A stretch of 32,000 bases of DNA from Candidatus Saccharimonadota bacterium (GCA_023898645.1 CP060232.1:120001-152000), one strand, 5' to 3'; shown: positions 4,541 to 27,733, numbered from the stretch's first letter. Numbers and translations are program-made. The notes: generated from the sequence alone by a model not told the origin.

Positions 4541-4768
4541 ATGCGAGCAAATGCAGACCATGACACTGTCGATGATAAGATCCACCATTTTATGGCACGG
4601 AAATCTCCACTCAGGACGCTAAGTAAGATGGTTGCCGATCGCCTGGCAGTGGCTCCGATGAGCGCTGGACGTAGCGATGACGGTATGACATACGAAGTGG
4701 CAGAGTGGCATCAAAAACGGTCATCATATCCATTACGAAAAGTAATGCTGAAAGTAAAGACGCTCTAA
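4541..4768 (+). CDS. Small hypothetical protein (75 aa)
   Basis: I prefer the ATG at 4541 because AGGAG (4531-4535) lies 5 nt upstream. The tracked GTG at 4517 has no SD. The ORF ends inside a terminator hairpin. No recognisable domain. Confidence 0.5.
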   Translation: MRANADHDTVDDKIHHFMARKSPLRTLSKMVADRLAVAPMSAGRSDDGMTYEVAEWHQKRSSYPLRKVMLKVKTL

Positions 4769-4794: not shown

Positions 4795-5757
4795 TTAATC
4801 ATTTTGGCGAACGCTTACCAGGTAGTCAATCATGCGTTCGGCAATATTCATGACATACCCTCGTAGCCGATCAAGACTGTCTTCGACGATGGCTCCTTCG
4901 TATGACTGTTTCATTCTCTTTGAACTGAAAATAAGTTGTTCAAGCTCATGATCTTTATCTAGGATTGCATGCGCTTTGTCTATGTCAAAGTGGAGAAGCA
5001 TCGTTTCGGTATCTTGCAGTAATTGCTCCGCACCTTTTTTGATGGAAGAAAAACTATGAGACAACTGTACGGGCTCGGTTCGGTCGTTTCCTGCTAGCTC
5101 GGCAATTTTGACGGCGTGGTCGCCAATACGTTCGATTTGTCCGGCGATGCTGCGATAAAAATCGGCTTTGGCAACGTCGTTATCGATCTTGCCGCCGAGA
5201 ACTTGTTGGAAGTGACGTTTGATAGCATAGACAATTTTGTTAACTTCGTGGTCGCGTTGTATGATGTCGGTCGCTAATTCTTTGTCGCCGTCTTGCGCAG
5301 CAACTAAAGCGTCCTCGAACATGCTACGTACCATCTGAAAGACGCCAATTGTGTTTTCAGGAATCGAAAATGACATTTCGTTGAGCAGAGTGCGAGCAAC
5401 GATAGTGTCAGATGTTTCTCGTACGATTTCAAACCCGAAAAATAAACGAATTGTCTGTCTGATGATTTGATTTTGTTCGGAAGTAATACGTTTGCTGGCT
5501 AGCTCAATACGGTCGGCGCCGGCTATATACGAACCAATCATTTCTCGTTCAATCCAACTACTGCTCTTGCCGTCGAGATCGAAGCGATAAATCAAATCAC
5601 GCTTGGTTCTTGATGCCGGCTGTATGGTTAATCCGCCTTTAGTCTCGTTAACAAACACCTCGTCTTTGCTACGGAGCGCCCATCGGTCTACCCAGGATTT
5701 AGGTAGTGTTAGCGTCAAGCTGCTTCCACCAGTTGCCTGTAATTTTCGTTTCTTCAT
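4795..5757 (-). CDS. phoU: PhoU-family phosphate regulator with an N-terminal AbrB/SpoVT-type DNA-binding domain
   Basis: N-terminus GGSSLTLTLPKSWVDRWALRSKDEVFVNETKGGLTIQP is a swapped-hairpin AbrB-like motif. Two PhoU repeats follow (IQRDHEVNKIVYAIKRHF; ERIGDHAVKIAE). Divergent from pstS. Confidence 0.8.
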   Translation of the reverse strand: MKKRKLQATGGSSLTLTLPKSWVDRWALRSKDEVFVNETKGGLTIQPASRTKRDLIYRFDLDGKSSSWIEREMIGSYIAGADRIELASKRITSEQNQIIRQTIRLFFGFEIVRETSDTIVARTLLNEMSFSIPENTIGVFQMVRSMFEDALVAAQDGDKELATDIIQRDHEVNKIVYAIKRHFQQVLGGKIDNDVAKADFYRSIAGQIERIGDHAVKIAELAGNDRTEPVQLSHSFSSIKKGAEQLLQDTETMLLHFDIDKAHAILDKDHELEQLIFSSKRMKQSYEGAIVEDSLDRLRGYVMNIAERMIDYLVSVRQND

Positions 5758-5829
5758 AATTTATATATATATCAAACTGTTAATTAATGCTACTTATTTG
5801 TAATTTTTACAGCGGTAGATAAAAAAGCG

Positions 5830-5856
5830 TTGACAGCAAGACGACGGCGATATAAT
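5830..5856 (+). promoter_or_regulatory. Candidate pstS promoter
   Basis: TTGACA (5830-5835), short 15-nt spacer, TATAAT (5851-5856). An AT-rich leader follows with ATTTGTA/TTACA repeats. AGGAGGG RBS at 5898-5904. Confidence 0.45.
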
Positions 5857-5907
5857 TTGTATATATAAATTACATTTAATATATATTTTTCATATATAGG
5901 AGGGTGC

Positions 5908-7017
5908 ATGAGTAAAAACACGGGGATGATTTCTGGCGTTATCGCGGTAATCGTAGTAGCGGCTGGGTTACTAGTTTTGACGAACAATAAATCAGACACA
6001 GACACAAACAAGAGCAACACGGCAGTAACCGTAACGGGCGCTGGTTCTACGTTTGCCGCTCCGGTTTATGGCCAGCTAGGCAAGGAATACAAAGACAAGA
6101 AAAACGTTACTATCAACTATCAGTCGGTCGGTTCTGGTGCTGGTGTAGCGCAATTTATCGCGAACACGGTGAATTTCGGTGGCACTGATGTTGCTCTGAA
6201 AGATTCAGAAGTGAGTCAAGCAAAAGTACACGGTGACCCGCTTAATATACCAGTATCGTTTGGTGCAATTACCGTGTCTTATAACTTGCCGGGCGTGAAA
6301 AGTGGTCTGAAACTCGATGGCTCGACAGTTGCCGACATATACATGGGTAAGATTACTAAGTGGAACGATTCTGCGATAACTACGTTAAATCCAGGCGTAT
6401 CTCTACCTGACATGGCAATATCGCCAGTATATCGTTCAGATTCATCAGGTACTACGGCACAACTTACTACATTCCTCGCTGACGAGAGTTCTGATTGGAG
6501 CTCACAGATTGGTAGCGACAAAACAGTCAAGTGGCCGGCAGGTACTGGTTCGAAAGGTAATGACGGCGTTGCCGCTACGACGAGCCAAACAGTTGGAGCG
6601 CTTGGTTACGTCGAACTGGCATACGCATTGCAAAATAATTTCACCGTTGCTTCGGTCAAAAATAAAATGGGCGAATATGTTGCTCCGTCGCTCGATACTA
6701 CGTCGAAAGCTGGCGATAACTTACCGAATCTACCCGAAGATTTACGATTCACTTCGATTGATTCACCGGCTGAAGGTGCGTATCCGATTGCATCTCCAAC
6801 ATTCATCGTTACGTATCAGGATGTCTGCAAGGCTGGAGCTGTTAAAAACGCGAACGAGGCTGGGGCTTTGAAAGGCTGGCTGGGTTACATACTGGGCGAA
6901 GGCCAGGTAAGTATGAAAAAGTTAGAGTACGCGCCACTAGCACCAAGCTTGCTAAAAAAAGCTCAAGCAAAGGTTGATAGTATGACATGCAACGGTTCTG
7001 CGATTCAGGCAAGGTAG
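5908..7017 (+). CDS. pstS: Phosphate ABC transporter substrate-binding protein PstS
   Basis: TGAGSTFAAPVY and SGAG motifs are typical of PstS. N-terminal hydrophobic anchor with no lipobox Cys. First gene of pstSCAB. Confidence 0.9.
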   Translation: MSKNTGMISGVIAVIVVAAGLLVLTNNKSDTDTNKSNTAVTVTGAGSTFAAPVYGQLGKEYKDKKNVTINYQSVGSGAGVAQFIANTVNFGGTDVALKDSEVSQAKVHGDPLNIPVSFGAITVSYNLPGVKSGLKLDGSTVADIYMGKITKWNDSAITTLNPGVSLPDMAISPVYRSDSSGTTAQLTTFLADESSDWSSQIGSDKTVKWPAGTGSKGNDGVAATTSQTVGALGYVELAYALQNNFTVASVKNKMGEYVAPSLDTTSKAGDNLPNLPEDLRFTSIDSPAEGAYPIASPTFIVTYQDVCKAGAVKNANEAGALKGWLGYILGEGQVSMKKLEYAPLAPSLLKKAQAKVDSMTCNGSAIQAR

Positions 7018-20828: not shown

Positions 20829-20912
20829 TATTTAACTTATACCACTGCGAATCAGTCATCGCTAATTTGGCGGTAGATAATGCAGTGTTTTTTGACAGAA
20901 GAGGTGAGTTAC

Positions 20913-21326
20913 GTGACGCAAATCATTTCGGATGGCGCGTTGTTTCATCATGCGCACGACAGTACGGGCAACGGCTATAACGCTTTTGTAAAAAAAGCAA
21001 TACAAGCTCAGAACGACGGCAGTCTTGCTGTGCTGAAAAGCGAGGTTGCTCGGGTTGCAAGTGACATCAATTTCAATCTGATGCAGGGTGACCGGATCGA
21101 CAAACGGATTAGCATGGCAAAATATCTTGCTAAGCAAAAGCTGATAGTCCCGATTCCCAATCGCTATATCGAGAGTGCAAATACAGGTGTCGTCAATAAA
21201 TGGTCAGTACACGACGAGCTTAAGGCGTGGGGTTTTGAGCCGACAATGCTTAAAATCAACATCAAGAAGCGTCGACGGTTTAACACACGTGAATGTTACG
21301 TTGAAATAACATTCAAGAAAAAGTGA
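20913..21326 (+). CDS. Hypothetical protein (137 aa)
   Basis: I prefer the GTG at 20913, with GAGGTGA 5 nt upstream. The ATG at 20880 is the tracked alternative. No recognisable domain. Confidence 0.5.
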   Translation: MTQIISDGALFHHAHDSTGNGYNAFVKKAIQAQNDGSLAVLKSEVARVASDINFNLMQGDRIDKRISMAKYLAKQKLIVPIPNRYIESANTGVVNKWSVHDELKAWGFEPTMLKINIKKRRRFNTRECYVEITFKKK

Positions 21327-21409: not shown

Positions 21410-21973
21410 TTATTGGTGTTGCATCACCGTGTCGAGCCTGGGCAGGGCGATACCTGTGCCATAGATAAACGTGGTATTTCCGTAAGCGCGAAATCCGTAT
21501 GAGCCGAGCTCGATACGCCGGTATCTATCAACGATATCGTACGTATTTGGTCCGGTTTCTTCGACTTCCGTAACGATGAATTTTTTTAAAAACTCCCTAG
21601 CGTCGCGAATCATTTCTTTTAAATTTTCCTGTGTTGCATCGGTATTAATTAGTTCCAATTTCATGAAGTATGGGTGATGGAGTCTGTCGTATGATTTTTC
21701 TATGCGAAAGCACGGTGTTATACAGCAGGCCTTGGCTATGATTGCGCCACGACGCATTAATTCAATAAAACTTTGCTCTCCACTGCCCACGAGCTCCCCG
21801 TATTGAACCGATGTTCCGATTGCACCAACGGGCAGGGTGACGGCTAATGATTCGTGGCTCACGGCCCACGGCACTTCCATGTAGTGGTATCCGAGGTTTT
21901 CATAGTAATCGAGACCAGTGGTTAATTTTCGATAATCGATATGTCGTGGTTCGGTATAACTAACGCCTACCAT
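21410..21973 (-). CDS. Stand-alone mini class II aminoacyl-tRNA-synthetase-like catalytic core (187 aa)
   Basis: Motif-1-like GYHYMEVPWAV, motif 2 CFRIEKSYDRLHHPYFMKLEL, ELGSYGFR, motif 3 GTGIALPRLDTVM. GAGGAGGG lies 9 nt upstream of the ATG at 21973. Overlaps the upstream gene by 14 nt. Confidence 0.65.
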   Translation of the reverse strand: MVGVSYTEPRHIDYRKLTTGLDYYENLGYHYMEVPWAVSHESLAVTLPVGAIGTSVQYGELVGSGEQSFIELMRRGAIIAKACCITPCFRIEKSYDRLHHPYFMKLELINTDATQENLKEMIRDAREFLKKFIVTEVEETGPNTYDIVDRYRRIELGSYGFRAYGNTTFIYGTGIALPRLDTVMQHQ

Positions 21974-22292
21974 TTTCAAAAGCCCTCCTCGTAATTCGCG
22001 ACATTGTTATAAGATCTTCGATACTGTTTGATGGGTGATGTTTTTCCAGATAAAGCGCTATAGCGCCAATCAGATCGGACAGTTCGACAAGCGCCATGAT
22101 TTTCGCGTCTTGCCTTTCGGCGTCTTGCAGCTCGAGTACTTCCTCGAGAAGCTTGCTTGATTCTCCAATGACCCCTTTTGGTATTTCCATGAGATGATAG
22201 CCGGGTTTTTTAGCGGGTTTTTCGTACCTTGGCAATCCAGGTTCCTTTCTGTGCAATTTAGCGATCACATTATCAGCGTATCGTGATATCAT
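21960..22292 (-). CDS. HisE/MazG-like all-alpha NTP pyrophosphohydrolase-family protein
   Basis: GESSKLLEEVLELQDA ... MALVELSDLIGAIALYL is the E/D-rich helix pair typical of MazG/HisE. I prefer the ATG at 22292; the tracked start at 22295 is a TTG. Confidence 0.6.
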   Translation of the reverse strand: MISRYADNVIAKLHRKEPGLPRYEKPAKKPGYHLMEIPKGVIGESSKLLEEVLELQDAERQDAKIMALVELSDLIGAIALYLEKHHPSNSIEDLITMSRITRRAFENGRR

Positions 22293-22306
22293 CAAAGTAT
22301 CTAGTA

Positions 22307-22314
22307 AGTATAAT
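22307..22314. promoter_or_regulatory. Overlapping back-to-back -10 boxes in a 33-bp divergent intergenic region
   Basis: Plus-strand TATAAT (22309-22314) lies 11 nt before the ATG at 22326. Minus-strand TATACT (22312-22307) lies 14 nt before the ATG at 22292. Confidence 0.4.
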
Positions 22315-22325
22315 TTGACTCAAAT

Positions 22326-22997
22326 ATGGTTGATATAACAGTAGTAAAACATCACATTCAAAAAAATATCTTGAGTATTTTAATGCACCAAAAGATGGCG
22401 CGTTTTCGCGACATGCGGCCACCTCGTACCGACACCAATCTCTATAGCTACCACCTTGGTCAATTGTTAAAAGCTGGTTTGGTCAAAAAGACTGACGGCG
22501 GCTATACGCTCGACACTGCCGGCCTTGTGTACATAGACCGGCTTAATGCCGAAAAGCTTTTTGCGCGCCAACAGCCCAAAATCGTGACGATGCTCGTCAT
22601 CCAAAACAGTGACGGCGACGTACTTTTGCAGCGTCGAAGTAAGCAGCCATATATCGACCAGTGGTCGTTGCCACATGGTAAACTCCACATCGAAGATGCG
22701 TCACTGGAAGCTGCCGCAAAACGTGAGGCTGCCGAGAAGTTGAACGTTCATAATCAAGACATGAGTCATGCTGGCGATTGCTATATCCGTGTACGCTATG
22801 GAGATGGCGCCACGATAGTTACATTAGCCCATGTCTTTACGTTTAACCGCGATGACATAAAAACTACCGAACAGACCATTTGGGCGCGTCCGCATAAATT
22901 GCATACTATGGATCTTGCGCCAGGTATTACTGACGTTATCGCTCGGACATTTTTCCGCGACCCGTTTTATTTTGAAGAGTTCGAACAGTCTGTGTAG
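22326..22997 (+). CDS. Winged-HTH + Nudix-domain protein with a degenerate Nudix box (putative ligand-sensing regulator)
   Basis: N-terminal wHTH (ILSILMHQKMARFRDM...LYSYHLGQLLKAGLVKK). The C-terminal Nudix fold carries the box GKLHIEDASLEAAAKREAAEKL. This deviates from GX5EX7REUXEEXGU by a 1-residue shift, E to K and loss of the G. Confidence 0.7.
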   Translation: MVDITVVKHHIQKNILSILMHQKMARFRDMRPPRTDTNLYSYHLGQLLKAGLVKKTDGGYTLDTAGLVYIDRLNAEKLFARQQPKIVTMLVIQNSDGDVLLQRRSKQPYIDQWSLPHGKLHIEDASLEAAAKREAAEKLNVHNQDMSHAGDCYIRVRYGDGATIVTLAHVFTFNRDDIKTTEQTIWARPHKLHTMDLAPGITDVIARTFFRDPFYFEEFEQSV

Positions 22998-23027
22998 TTC
23001 GACTTTAAAGTCCTGTAGAATGAAAAC

Positions 23028-23363
23028 ATGAAAGAATATGGAGAAAAGGCGATTTCAACGCTGACGTCGAATCACGCTTACGGGAGTATTACGCCCGATC
23101 TCATGGCGCAGGTACTTGGCTTGGTCGGAGAAAGCGGTGAAGTGGCAGAAAAATTCAAAAAACTTGTTCGCGACAAGGGTGGTGAGATTTCCGAAGAGGA
23201 TAGACAAGAGCTGCTCAAGGAGCTTGGCGATATCCTGTGGTATGTTAATGCGGTATCAGTATTGCTTGGAAGCTCACTCGAAGAGACGGCATCGAAAAAT
23301 CTGGAAAAAGTATTGAGCCGAAAGGCTCGTGGAAAAACACATGGCAGCGGTGACAATCGCTAG
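23028..23363 (+). CDS. MazG-like nucleoside-triphosphate pyrophosphohydrolase (small YpjD-type)
   Basis: LVGESGEVAEKFKK and LKELGDILWYV are MazG metal-binding helices. TAGAAT (23016-23021) lies 6 nt upstream of the ATG. Confidence 0.75.
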   Translation: MKEYGEKAISTLTSNHAYGSITPDLMAQVLGLVGESGEVAEKFKKLVRDKGGEISEEDRQELLKELGDILWYVNAVSVLLGSSLEETASKNLEKVLSRKARGKTHGSGDNR

Positions 23364-24619
23364 GTTTTACGATCGGTATTTTTAACTTTTTCACGCAGCC
23401 ATTCGTCAATCGAGCCGGCACCCATGCAAAGAACTAGCGCACCACGGTCGCGCAGTTCCTGTATGTACCACCATAAATTGTCGTTAAGTTCCGCTTGATG
23501 CAGGGCGTGTCTGTTAGTGACGTTTACTGCGAGTTCTGCTGGAGTCAGGACGGGCTGGTCTTTGTCTTCGCGTGTCAGGTAAGTTGGCAACCAATAAACT
23601 TCACTAGTGCCTTCGAAGCAATCAGTGTACTGATCGACAAGCGAGTATTGTCGCATGTTTTGATGGGGCTGATACACGAGTACAACATCGTCGTTGAGTT
23701 CTCGAGCCATCTGTATTGTTGCTTTAATTTCAGTCGGGTGATGTCCGTAGTCGCTGTAAAGATTCGGCAATATCTGCTCAAATCGTCGGTCCGTTCCGGG
23801 GAAGTTATTGAGCGCGCCTGTCGCGTCGCCATCTATACCGAGTCTCTCTATGGCTTTAACGACTAAACTGGCATTTTGCCGATTGTGTTTGCCGGCAAGC
23901 GTGACGTTTGCTATGTTGCTGTCACTGAGTGCCCAAGTGTTTTGTGGCTGACCTAGTTTTTTGGCGTCATCTTGCCACAAAATCGTGAAATCGCTCTGGA
24001 CGACGAACTCCTGAAAAGCTGCGCGATATGATTCGCTTGTCGGATACGTGTCCGGGTGGTCGTAATCGAGCGAAGTTATGAGCGACAAATAAGGGCGGAA
24101 ATGCAGGAAGTTGCGATCGAACTCGTCGCATTCGTATATGAAATACTGACTGCCGGGTTCGTAATGACCGCTCGGTCCGAATGATAGCGTGGTGCCGACA
24201 GAATAGCTAACAGGAATGTTGAGATGTTTGAATGTCCAGACAGCCATGGCTGTGGTTGTTGTCTTGCCGTGTGTACCTGCGACGGCAATTAGCTTAAGGT
24301 CTTTGTCTTTTATGATATATGACAGCAGCTGGTCGCGCTTGGTTATTTTGATACCAAGCTCCCTTGCCGCCATTAACTCAGGGTTGCTGTCAGGTATACC
24401 AGATGAGTAAACGAGCCAGGTAATCGGTTGGATCGCATGTGCCTCACGAAGGAACGAGCCGTCTTGTTTGTAGTTGATCATTACGCCGCGCTCGTGAAGG
24501 TGCGTGGACATCAGACTCTCAGCCTGGTCTGATCCTTTGACTTGATAGCCGGCATCGAGTGCGATTTCAGCAAGCGGACCAAGTCCGACGCCGCCGATGC
24601 CGCAAAAGTATATATTCAT
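23360..24619 (-). CDS. murC: Mur ligase family, MurC-like (UDP-N-acetylmuramate--L-alanine ligase) or Mpl-like
   Basis: N-terminus FCGIGGVGLGPLAEIA and P-loop AVAGTHGKTTTTAM. 419 aa. No other mur/dcw genes are adjacent. Confidence 0.7.
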   Translation of the reverse strand: MNIYFCGIGGVGLGPLAEIALDAGYQVKGSDQAESLMSTHLHERGVMINYKQDGSFLREAHAIQPITWLVYSSGIPDSNPELMAARELGIKITKRDQLLSYIIKDKDLKLIAVAGTHGKTTTTAMAVWTFKHLNIPVSYSVGTTLSFGPSGHYEPGSQYFIYECDEFDRNFLHFRPYLSLITSLDYDHPDTYPTSESYRAAFQEFVVQSDFTILWQDDAKKLGQPQNTWALSDSNIANVTLAGKHNRQNASLVVKAIERLGIDGDATGALNNFPGTDRRFEQILPNLYSDYGHHPTEIKATIQMARELNDDVVLVYQPHQNMRQYSLVDQYTDCFEGTSEVYWLPTYLTREDKDQPVLTPAELAVNVTNRHALHQAELNDNLWWYIQELRDRGALVLCMGAGSIDEWLREKVKNTDRKT

Positions 24620-26920: not shown

Positions 26921-26996
26921 TGGTGGGGCTGGTAGGAATCGAACCTACTACCAAGTGGTTATGAGCCGCCTGCTCTAACCGATGAGCTACAGCCCC
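26921..26996 (-). tRNA. tRNA with CAT anticodon: elongator Met or lysidine-dependent Ile2
   Basis: 76-nt cloverleaf: GGGGCTG/CAGCCCC acceptor, GCTC/GAGC D stem, GGCGG-CTCATAA-CCACT anticodon arm (one C-A mismatch), GTAGG-TTCGATT-CCTAC T arm. CCA is encoded. Confidence 0.9.
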
Positions 26997-27159
26997 ATGC
27001 CAGAATAAAACCAAATAAGCTAGTTAGCTCGTCTTTGTCTATTTTATCATCACTACGCTATATTTGTATGTTTTGAACAAATATATCACTTCATCGTCTC
27101 TGAAAAACTTGCATGAGCAATCTTTTCGCTTGTCTCCTAGTGTTATAATAGTAAAAACA

Positions 27160-27609
27160 ATGCAAAACAGACAAATAAAACGATTCATTTACACCGTTCG
27201 CCATCAGTATATGACGATGAACAATATGGTGCTTGCGGTGGCGGTGGTCATTGCCGTTGGCTGGGCGTGGTCGTCGGTTGAGGCGGTGCAACGTAACTAC
27301 CAGCTGCAAAAAGAAGTGAACGATAAGAGGCGTCAAGCGAAGCTCATTGAATTGCAAACCGAAAACCTGCAGTTCGAACAGAACTATTATAAGAGCAATG
27401 AATATCTTACGCTCGAAGCAAAGCGACGATTAGGATTGGTGGAACCGGGTGAAAAAGTTTTGATATTACCAGCGAACTCAGCTTCTGTCGTAGCAGAGGA
27501 TCAGGCCGAAAAGAACGCGGATACGTTGCTTCCAGATGACGTACCGCCCCCGCCGCCTCTTACCCAATGGCTTGATTTTTTGTTTGGTGCTAAGCCAAAC
27601 GCTCGATAG
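27160..27609 (+). CDS. FtsB/DivIC-like septum formation initiator family protein
   Basis: A single TM segment (MVLAVAVVIAVGWAW), then a coiled coil and EYLTLEAKRRLGLVEPGEKV. I prefer the ATG at 27160, 10 nt after TGtTATAAT (27144-27149); the upstream part of the tracked ORF covers the promoter. Confidence 0.7.
   Translation: MQNRQIKRFIYTVRHQYMTMNNMVLAVAVVIAVGWAWSSVEAVQRNYQLQKEVNDKRRQAKLIELQTENLQFEQNYYKSNEYLTLEAKRRLGLVEPGEKVLILPANSASVVAEDQAEKNADTLLPDDVPPPPPLTQWLDFLFGAKPNAR

Positions 27610-27656: not shown

Positions 27657-27733
<77 letters not shown>

Follow-up and report, generated by a model that had tools for sequence, protein, structure and literature searches.

Whether four small genes standing side by side constitute one functional unit, and what such a unit could be doing, is the question raised by a locus at positions 21,410-23,363 of a 32,000-nucleotide stretch from the genome of a Candidatus Saccharimonadota bacterium (GCA_023898645.1, CP060232.1:120001-152000; this whole stretch is referred to as the window). 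Two of the open reading frames (ORFs), A and B, are located on the minus strand and two others, C and D, on the plus strand. The original prediction, made from the sequence, considered them as a self-contained unit composed of a ligase resembling class II aminoacyl-tRNA synthetases (aaRS), a HisE/MazG-like protein, a regulator combining a winged helix-turn-helix (wHTH) with a degenerate Nudix domain, and a second MazG-like pyrophosphatase. The analysis described here leads to a different delimitation: the functional unit is an obligate pair of B and A, sometimes fused into a single protein, and not a set of four equal genes, the regulators being lineage-specific, the house-cleaning neighbour exchangeable and further partners lying outside the window. 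All four ORFs were found where they had been proposed and, together with the associated elements, are arranged as follows:

21410..21973, minus strand: gene A, a 187-aa free-standing class II (IIb-like) aaRS catalytic core (ORF from ATG, fold, motifs)

21983..21990, minus strand: Shine-Dalgarno sequence of A, GAGGAGGG, within the 3' end of B (sequence reading)

21960..22235, minus strand: gene B, a likely MazG/HisE-like, all-alpha subunit of about 91 aa of the nucleoside triphosphate (NTP) pyrophosphohydrolase type (revised TTG start, homologue alignment)

22236..22325, no strand assigned: divergent control region between B and C, 90 bp (palindrome and TATAAT)

22326..22997, plus strand: gene C, a 223-aa protein with N-terminal wHTH and C-terminal degenerate Nudix domain (Pfam NUDIX)

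23028..23363, plus strand: gene D, a 111-aa canonical MazG-type NTP pyrophosphohydrolase (Pfam MazG)

Fold and motifs place A in the class II aaRS catalytic superfamily. Its AlphaFold2 model (predicted local distance difference test score, pLDDT, 95.1; predicted template modelling score, pTM, 0.91; 45 homologues) gave 564 Foldseek matches in the PDB at E ≤ 1e-3, the top 50 being without exception class II aaRS catalytic domains, with those of PylRS, SerRS and PheRS-alpha as the best ones (E from 2e-9 to 5e-8, TM-score about 0.7). Motifs 1, 2 and 3 are recognized as GYxYxEVPW, CFRxE...F and GTGxALPR, respectively, invariant or nearly so in 45 sequences, and the same sequences share R90, F103, R179, the D146/E155 pair, S64-G-E66-Q67 and E155-LGSYG-x-R162, which we take to be the ATP-binding arginines, the adenine-stacking phenylalanine, magnesium ligands and amino-acid-binding elements of class IIb type. 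In AspRS, AsnRS and AsnA the arginine occupying the position of R162 presumably pairs with the side chain of Asp or Asn. At the level of profiles, A matched PHROG 4806 (E = 1e-32) and stayed below the Pfam cut-off for tRNA-synt_2 (PF00152; 17.3 bits against 25), which many members of its family pass (P0261, for instance, at 30.2 bits). No NCBIfam aaRS equivalog matched it, its profile hit only aaRS in the PDB, all of them below threshold, and single-sequence PDB searches of A and of B gave noise only. The protein belongs to no curated family, neither to AsnA nor to EpmA, two of the identities under which it could have turned out to be something already known. Labels given to its homologues in phage records, other than 'hypothetical', are 'histidyl tRNA synthetase' or 'putative seryl-tRNA synthetase', and both are unsupported; the public record of A itself (H6797_00615) reads 'hypothetical protein'.

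With its 187 aa, A is a core only, carrying no anticodon-binding or other appended domain, and, judged by length or architecture, no anticodon- or RNA-binding domain was seen in about 1,585 clusters of the family. These clusters, formed at 50% identity, are what the A-family profile retrieved from among 1.84 billion representatives (1,423 of them at E ≤ 1e-10), and nearly all have a length of 175-200 aa; so small a harvest marks the family as a discrete one, well apart from true synthetases. Both subunits of the pair are acidic, the median isoelectric point being 5.2 for A and 5.6 for B. As far as conserved residues allow judging, A looks catalytically competent and would possess everything required to bind ATP-Mg and an alpha-amino acid and to form an acyl-adenylate, with nothing apparent to recognize the body of a tRNA.

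For B, several weak but concordant signals make a MazG/HisE-like nature likely. The window protein has no Pfam match, the MazG and PRA-PH models being not passed, and it is recognized by PHROG 6408 with E = 9e-35. Its AlphaFold2 model consists of three helices, and from residue 31 onwards pLDDT exceeds 90. The best Foldseek matches of this model are HisE (2a7w, 1yvw, 1y6x, 1yxb) and MazG (1vmg, 7yh5, 3cra, 2yxh) chains with E of only 0.5-3; such chains make up six of the top seven and seven of the top ten matches, with E no better than 0.5-1.5 and TM-scores of 0.4-0.5. Among 38 family members, PRA-PH is touched at E ≤ 0.05 by 12 and MazG by two, and the best relative, the Kabachok homologue, reaches 20.0 bits against the PRA-PH cut-off of 21.3. 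The annotators of phage phi92 independently labelled gp197 (84 aa) as 'MazG-type fold'. Residues E50, E51, E54 and D57 together with E70 and D73 are invariant in the 38 sequences (EExxE..D / ExxD), and we assume this paired acidic motif to be the metal-site pattern of MazG type. Comparison of the B and D families by hhalign brought the acidic motifs into register at a non-significant score, and we do not claim homology of B and D as demonstrable from their sequences. Membership of B in the MazG/HisE clan, below Pfam thresholds, is thus probable. The folds assigned to the four products in the original prediction were recovered with different strength, A by Foldseek, C and D by passing the NUDIX and MazG models, and B by the concordance just described.

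That B and A make up a unit follows from their association across genomes. A total of 201 A-bearing loci (denoted by L numbers) were gathered from GTDB, IMG/VR, metagenomes and the phage collection, and then searched with hidden Markov models of A and B. The A family resides mostly in large phages, bacteria of the Candidate Phyla Radiation (CPR) and DPANN archaea, and with most of its members in large phages the pair is not specific to Patescibacteria. By tblastn, A was found in 276 phage records, including phi92-like and Phapecoctavirus coliphages, rV5-like Vequintavirinae, T4-like phages of Acinetobacter, phiCbK-like phages of Caulobacter, Brevundimonas jumbo phages and Microcystis phages. 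In 191 of the 201 loci B is encoded on the same strand as A: directly upstream of it (B>A) in 107, directly downstream (A>B) in 28, fused to it as a single A-B ORF in 19 and more than 150 nt apart in 37, where, in those inspected, the distance is accounted for by an extension of B or by one intervening gene. Five of the ten loci lacking a same-strand B end there with the contig. After clustering of A at 70% identity, the 146 clusters comprised 105 with B>A, 20 with A>B and 15 with fused A-B order, only six being devoid of B, so that B is adjacent or fused to A in 140 of them; look-ups anchored on B found A adjoining it or one gene away in three cases out of three. Adjacency by chance is excluded for B-A. 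In the fused proteins the motif 3 helix of A runs into the GYH segment of B with almost no linker. Four seeming fusions of the inverse type, with A at the C-terminus (P0256, P0261, P0267 and P0371), were rejected as N-terminal extensions devoid of B motifs, and only the A-B order is real. Existence of two gene orders and of a fusion in viruses, bacteria and archaea provides strong comparative evidence that A and B act together, probably as a complex. Of the expected conservation of the gene neighbourhood, the part concerning B-A stood, its synteny being above chance, and the part concerning D did not, since D is confined to close relatives and one viral lineage. No published description of the pair was found in the part of the full-text literature accessible to us, jumbo-phage comparative genomics included, which is not proof that none exists, and in this literature, as anticipated in the original prediction, no described pathway matched. 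PADLOC models gave no match for A or B and thus no evidence for a role in defence.

In the window the pair has a real anatomy of translational coupling. The stop codon of B (21960-21962) is located 11 nt downstream of the ATG of A (21973), so the two frames overlap by 14 nt, and GAGGAGGG on the minus strand precedes this ATG by 9 nt, still within B; both features, pointed out at the beginning, are readable in the sequence. The same overlapping arrangement is adopted by gp197/gp196 of phage phi92 and by most of the 107 B>A loci. The 5' border of B had to be moved. Its open frame extends to 22292/22295, and the long ORF, called initially, comprises 110 aa with invariant PGYH at residue 30. In the alignment of 38 homologues the first 19 or so codons have no conservation and the conserved part starts at PGYH; the homologues are typically 84-92 aa long and start about ten residues ahead of this motif (for example, MPHHEKTVPKPGYHL). 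The TTG at 22235 with AAGGA upstream at 7-nt spacing gives a 91-aa product beginning with MPRYEKPAKKPGYHL and, in the light of this alignment, is most likely the start. The NCBI call (H6797_00620; 21960-22190, 76 aa, from MEIPKG) is too short because it removes the family-invariant PGYH. With the TTG at 22235 as start, the gap separating B from C amounts to 90 bp (22236-22325) and not to 33 bp, as follows from the overlong call.

On the other side of this gap, C passes the NUDIX model (PF00293) with 44 bits against a cut-off of 21.1, and its N-terminal wHTH is seen through matches to DUF7347 and HTH_20, both weak. The catalytic Nudix box has the form GX5EX7REUXEEXGU. No such box is present in C, which carries REAAEK..N in the window and REUxEK family-wide, with lysine in place of the second catalytic glutamate in 11 of 11 orthologues; in the window protein the glycine is lost as well and the spacing is off by one. 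C appears as a candidate ligand-binding regulator rather than a hydrolase, and it is probably a ligand-sensing transcription factor, which agrees with the non-catalytic Nudix-type sensor initially suggested. TATAAT occurs at 22309-22314, 11 nt ahead of the ATG of C, and as C has no Shine-Dalgarno sequence its transcript probably carries little or no leader. The palindrome TTTGACTCAAA at 22314-22324 abuts this ATG, and TTTGA(G/C)TCAAA is found at the same position in seven orthologous intergenic regions, including those of the distant loci L025 and L027, whose C homologues have about one-third of the score (111 versus about 360 bits); conservation of this kind nominates the palindrome as a candidate operator. 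A search of the B-C intergenic region for inverted repeats detected nothing of 10 nt or longer, and scanning for sigma-70 promoters and terminators gave sites in numbers not above those in shuffled sequences. Overlapping back-to-back -10 boxes, postulated for this region earlier, are therefore unsupported, the TATAAT being present and the promoter scan not exceeding shuffles.

Divergent adjacency of C to B-A recurs in L006, L012, L014, L015, L025, L027 and L123, and in L013, L016 and L030 only a CYTH-kinase gene co-oriented with B-A stands between C and B. Linkage of C to the pair thus totals ten loci of Saccharibacteria, extends down to about 38-40% identity of A, and within this group is above chance. 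The genes of the cluster are syntenic in at least six related genomes. As for D, it passes the MazG model (PF03819; 38.2 bits against 22) and matches PHROG 229 with E = 1e-27; starting 30 bp downstream of C, it is probably co-transcribed with it. PADLOC gave for C and D only weak matches to generic Nudix and small-protein models. Orthologues of D were detected only in the closest relatives (L006, L012-L015 and L123), and in the viral loci L045 and L047 a tandem-MazG relative stands behind an active Nudix hydrolase downstream of B-A, 2.3 kb from the start of A, the order behind the pair in L047 being active Nudix and then MazG. In L205, where A is 57% identical, the slot of D is taken by NTPase_I-T, with nucleoside deoxyribosyltransferase and a second Nudix protein also present. 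D is a peripheral member of the cluster, and it seems that some house-cleaning NTPase beside C is favoured, D itself being dispensable.

Beyond the relatives of the window, the company of the pair is largely made of nucleotide-related genes. NrdR (Zn-ribbon plus ATP-cone) is divergently positioned upstream of it in nine CPR loci (L017, L018, L031, L034, L127, L132, L186, L206 and L208), a set in which B>A and fused A-B are both represented; two unrelated nucleotide-sensing regulators, wHTH-Nudix and NrdR, occupy the same divergent position. No match of at least 13 out of 16 to the full NrdR-box consensus was found in the intergenic regions adjacent to NrdR. Short AT-rich palindromes, CTATATGTAG and CAATATATAG, were noticed between NrdR and B in L206 and L208 (around 4560-4740); CTATAT(A/G)TAG-like, they resemble the core of the NrdR box while staying below 13 of 16 against the full consensus. 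A CYTH plus uridine-kinase-family protein belongs to the B-A operon, its gene following the pair in L006, L014, L015 and L205 and preceding it in L013 and L016. Loci of DPANN type have fused A-B flanked by an AAA_28 kinase-CYTH protein and a radical SAM protein of about 240 aa, to which the nearest models are MoaA and prokaryotic viperin, and this block looks like a nucleotide-modifying operon. On contigs of DPANN and 'Methanosarcinales' metagenome-assembled genomes (L019, L023, L024, L026, L178, L182 and others) we also observed the block as a wHTH-like 281-aa protein, AAA_28 kinase-CYTH, A-B and radical SAM.

Another recurrent partner is protein X (about 190 aa, PHROG 4784). In the 19 loci that carry it, it always shares the strand of the pair and either follows A immediately or is joined to the C-terminus of B, for example:

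L017, 6554-7153: protein X

L018, 6537-7235: protein X

L031, 3944-4762: protein X fused to B

It has neither a Pfam or NCBIfam family nor a PDB relative found by profile, and its invariant pattern FGLGFIQ...R.H.Y...HxHRYxF...H, with four histidines and two cysteines, suggests by its HxH...H part that X may be a metal enzyme, 'cupin-like' at a guess. Homologues of CYTH-kinase, AAA_28-CYTH, radical SAM, X and NrdR are all missing from the window.

In phages the pair also stands among genes of deoxynucleotide and DNA synthesis. Phapecoctavirus and PsgM04F share the order NrdA, UvrD-type helicase, B, A, PHROG 15930 protein, NrdD; in L203 ThyA precedes B and A and dimeric dUTPase follows; in L202 the pair stands between DNA ligase and PolB. 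On the phage contig L207 (about 107 kb; 5001-6775) the order is B, A, PurA, the stop of A overlapping the start of full-length PurA; the A protein of this locus is present on 18 contigs, and the PurA is of ordinary type, 45-47% identical to bacterial PurA. Genes for dCMP deaminase and NADAR accompany the pair in seven and eight loci, respectively. In phi92-like and Phapecoctavirus phages the PHROG 15930 protein comes immediately after A or A-YqeY, as in L003 (5023-5973, phi92 gp194), L039 (3537-4883) and L041 (3500-5002); its label 'ribonucleotide reductase' has no Pfam or NCBIfam support and looks doubtful. This protein may represent a further partner of the pair.

Starting from the folds, the conserved catalytic residues, the linkage of B to A and of the regulator to both, and the content of neighbourhoods, we infer the catalytic steps, the substrate and acceptor, as well as the ligand and operator of C, in the following way. 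The EExxE..D / ExxD metal site would let B bind a (d)NTP, which B would either cleave to (d)NMP and pyrophosphate or hold and present. A, supplied with ATP-Mg, would adenylate the carboxylate of an amino acid, predicted to be Asp- or Asn-like from the class IIb-type signatures S-x-E-Q and E-x6-R, and, unlike a conventional tRNA synthetase, would pass the amino acid so activated on to an acceptor of nucleotide type. The logic of such a pathway would resemble that of MazZ followed by PurZ (NTP to NMP, then ligation of Asp) or the activation of carboxylate by AsnA. In this particular genome B-A would be transcribed divergently from C, whose Nudix domain probably senses a nucleotide ligand, with D behind it, and under such an arrangement expression would track the nucleotide pool.

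What we tentatively prefer, at a confidence well below even, is accordingly a two-subunit enzyme by which an amino acid, probably an Asp-like one, is activated with ATP and ligated to an acceptor of nucleotide type. An enzyme of nucleotide metabolism is favoured because A has no means for recognition of the tRNA body, both subunits are acidic, B contains the metal site, partners and regulators are nucleotide-related and cellular loci contain no tRNA close to the pair; recurrence of the nucleotide-metabolism context in independent lineages supports the same view. The chemistry initially proposed, that of an aminoacyl or otherwise modified nucleotide or of an acceptor other than tRNA, fits these gene contexts and in this qualified sense is retained. 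Several points weigh against the preferred reading. The assignment of B is composed of sub-threshold scores (Foldseek E ≥ 0.5, and the alignment with the D family not significant), and the guess of an Asp-like substrate draws on active-site residues of AspRS, AsnRS and AsnA. The neighbourhoods are heterogeneous, with no universal third gene, and, since the nucleotide modules of phages are large, adjacency in phages is weaker evidence than in cellular operons. Finally, phage pairs are often located in tRNA arrays, and YqeY, RNA ligase and RlaP as neighbours point to tRNA.

The last two points lead directly to the most viable of the other explanations, according to which B-A is a minimal two-subunit aaRS-like enzyme that charges, re-charges, amidates or repairs the 3' end of particular tRNAs, recognizing them through the acceptor end alone or in trans, for instance via the YqeY/GatB-tail protein. 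Caulobacter phage CcrBL9 has B-A inside a tRNA array, several lineages have it embedded in same-strand arrays (L043, L050, L051, L067, L073, L080, L101, L169 and L193), and tRNA genes are found within 6 kb in 24 of 80 IMG/VR loci, a figure to be read without a whole-contig or whole-genome control. The gene directly downstream of A in phi92, gp195, codes for a YqeY/GatB-tail domain protein (PF09424; PHROG label 'tRNA amidotransferase'); an Rnl2-type RNA ligase (PF09414) is encoded a few genes upstream of the pair in one phage lineage, the RNA-repair nucleotidyltransferase RlaP is near it in CR3, and PTH2 is 4.5 kb away in L207. All catalytic motifs of aaRS are, besides, intact in A. On the other hand, cellular loci are free of tRNA genes within 3 kb of the pair (0 of 27 GTDB loci) and have nucleotide enzymes and nucleotide-sensing regulators as operon partners, length and architecture show no anticodon-binding or other RNA-binding domain in any of the family's about 1,585 clusters, both subunits are acidic, and it is not obvious what an obligate MazG-like partner would do in aminoacylation. 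We regard a tRNA-directed enzyme as possible, if doubtful.

Much less room is left for A as a miniature aspartate-ammonia ligase or something similar, supplying an amino acid otherwise out of reach for symbionts and phages, with B as an accessory or regulatory component. The best NCBIfam match of A, a weak one, is indeed archaeal-type asparagine synthetase A (NF005055, E = 0.014), in Pfam it leans towards class IIb (D, K, N), and the anticodon-binding domain is missing as it is in AsnA. However, the score for NF005055 is 14.4 bits against a cut-off of 389, no AsnA chain appears among the PDB profile matches or the top 50 Foldseek matches, the neighbours are nucleotide and not amino-acid genes, and AsnA works without a partner, in contrast to A with its obligatory and sometimes fused B; this renders the explanation improbable. 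Quite improbable, too, is a dinucleoside-polyphosphate or alarmone module in which A would make signals of the diadenosine tetraphosphate (Ap4A) type or derived from aminoacyl-adenylate, B, D and Nudix proteins would degrade them and C would sense them. Ap4A-type synthesis is a known side reaction of class II aaRS, and enzymes hydrolysing Ap4A and alarmones are known from both the Nudix and the MazG families; all components bind nucleotides, Nudix and ATP-cone regulators flank the pair, and an HD_4 (RelA/SpoT-type) hydrolase is encoded near it in L203. Yet this evidence is purely circumstantial, PADLOC adds no match for A or B, it is left without a reason why a synthase should be fused, obligately and 1:1, to its own hydrolase, and the contexts with PurA, ThyA, ribonucleotide reductase and tRNA are explained no better than by the other proposals. 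That four unrelated house-cleaning or leftover genes came together by chance, as the restriction of D to close relatives, its replacement by NTPase_I-T in L205, the ordinary composition and the housekeeping flanks might suggest, is extremely improbable given the B-A linkage in 140 of 146 clusters with two orders and fusions in phages, bacteria and archaea, the C-(B-A) adjacency persisting to 38-40% identity of A, and the overlapping B/A frames with an internal Shine-Dalgarno sequence.

The surroundings of the cluster in the window are unremarkable. GC content is 0.45-0.48 over 21-24 kb, as elsewhere in the window, and the GC scan revealed no compositional island at B-A-C-D. Mur ligase (MurC) is encoded downstream of D and TrmB with an HhH-GPD glycosylase on the other side. 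The stop of D (23363) overlaps by 4 nt the stop of the convergent Mur-ligase ORF (23360-24619, minus strand), and minus-strand terminator-like hairpins fall within the coding sequence of D at this junction (23345-23363). Between TrmB and A there is a 148-aa ORF (20880-21326, plus strand) with no Pfam or PHROG match, which may be an orphan gene or no gene at all; in the relative L006 the interval from TrmB to the CYTH-kinase gene behind A contains a 162-aa gene, also without a Pfam match. Two divergent tRNA-Met(CAT) genes (26921-26996, minus strand, and 27657-27732, plus strand) flank a 181-aa ORF at 27064-27609, and an opposed tRNA-Met pair is likewise located about 5 kb from B-A in the relatives L014, L015 and L123.

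A-B represents a large, compact and apparently uncharacterised family (about 1,585 clusters), found in large phages as well as in CPR and DPANN, whose cellular genomes are the most reduced. A bolder statement, unlikely in our estimate, is that it is the smallest natural class II enzyme forming aminoacyl-adenylates, with a core of about 185 aa and an obligate MazG/HisE-like subunit, which either charges tRNA by the acceptor end alone in an 'urzyme-like' manner or makes new conjugates of amino acids and nucleotides for modification of nucleotides or of DNA/RNA. If A is active, it would define how small a natural class II core can be and bear on the debate about the minimal ancestral synthetase. 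A nucleotide as acceptor would mean a new step in nucleotide salvage or modification of symbionts and phages, and a tRNA would mean a new kind of synthetase. The question is directly testable, since homologues are present in cultivable coliphages (phi92-like, rV5-like and Phapecoctavirus) and in phages of Acinetobacter and Caulobacter.

Paralogues of aaRS functioning outside translation are few (AsnA, EpmA, HisZ and amino-acid:carrier-protein ligases), and each of them revealed new chemistry, which makes comparison with them instructive. AsnA, or archaeal AsnRS-like asparagine synthetase, is like A a free-standing class II core with class IIb-like signatures, no tRNA-binding domain and predicted adenylation of a carboxylate; unlike A with its roughly 187 aa it has about 300-330 aa, its model is failed by A, and it has neither the obligate MazG/HisE-like partner nor the nucleotide or tRNA gene neighbourhoods. 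EpmA (PoxA/GenX), an aaRS paralogue which acts together with EpmB and EpmC and attaches beta-lysine to elongation factor P (EF-P), has a non-tRNA acceptor, as proposed for A, and its accessory enzymes find a parallel in those of some A-B operons (radical SAM in DPANN, His-rich X in 19 loci). However, no EpmA match to A was obtained at E ≤ 1 in Pfam or NCBIfam, the recurrent neighbours give no linkage to EF-P, and the radical SAM protein of DPANN loci is MoaA/viperin-like, of about 240 aa, and not a lysine aminomutase.

HisZ-HisG together with HisE offers the same combination of an aaRS-like protein with a PRA-PH/HisE-type pyrophosphohydrolase acting on ATP-derived nucleotides, the PHROG label of A is 'histidyl tRNA synthetase', and the best fold and profile matches of B are to HisE. 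HisZ is regulatory, whereas A keeps the catalytic residues; A resembles class IIb, PylRS and SerRS instead of HisRS, and had no match to HisZ models at E ≤ 1 in Pfam or NCBIfam. A function in the histidine pathway was rejected, as neither HisG nor any other his gene occurs in any of the neighbourhoods. For C, the counterpart is NrtR, the ADP-ribose sensor with degenerate Nudix and winged HTH domains, which C resembles also in being divergent beside nucleotide-metabolism genes; the NrtR model NF050029 gave E = 3e-6 with 26.7 bits and was not passed (cut-off 400), the HTH is N-terminal in C (reverse domain order), and no NAD genes are near.

The MazZ-PurZ(-DatZ) module of Z-genome phages is paralleled by analogy and not by membership: A is not a homologue of PurA or PurZ, there is no DatZ/DpoZ context, and a Z-genome function was rejected since the PurA of L207 is ordinary and not PurZ-like. 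What is shared is the logic, in which conversion of NTP to NMP by a MazG-like protein is followed by ATP-dependent ligation of Asp, as proposed for B-A, and the setting, with the pair standing among phage nucleotide genes and, in one phage, in the order B-A-PurA. As a candidate aaRS-like ligase outside translation, A-B is set apart from all these systems in that A is minimal in size and comes with an obligate MazG/HisE-like partner, and in being distributed over phages, CPR bacteria and DPANN archaea.

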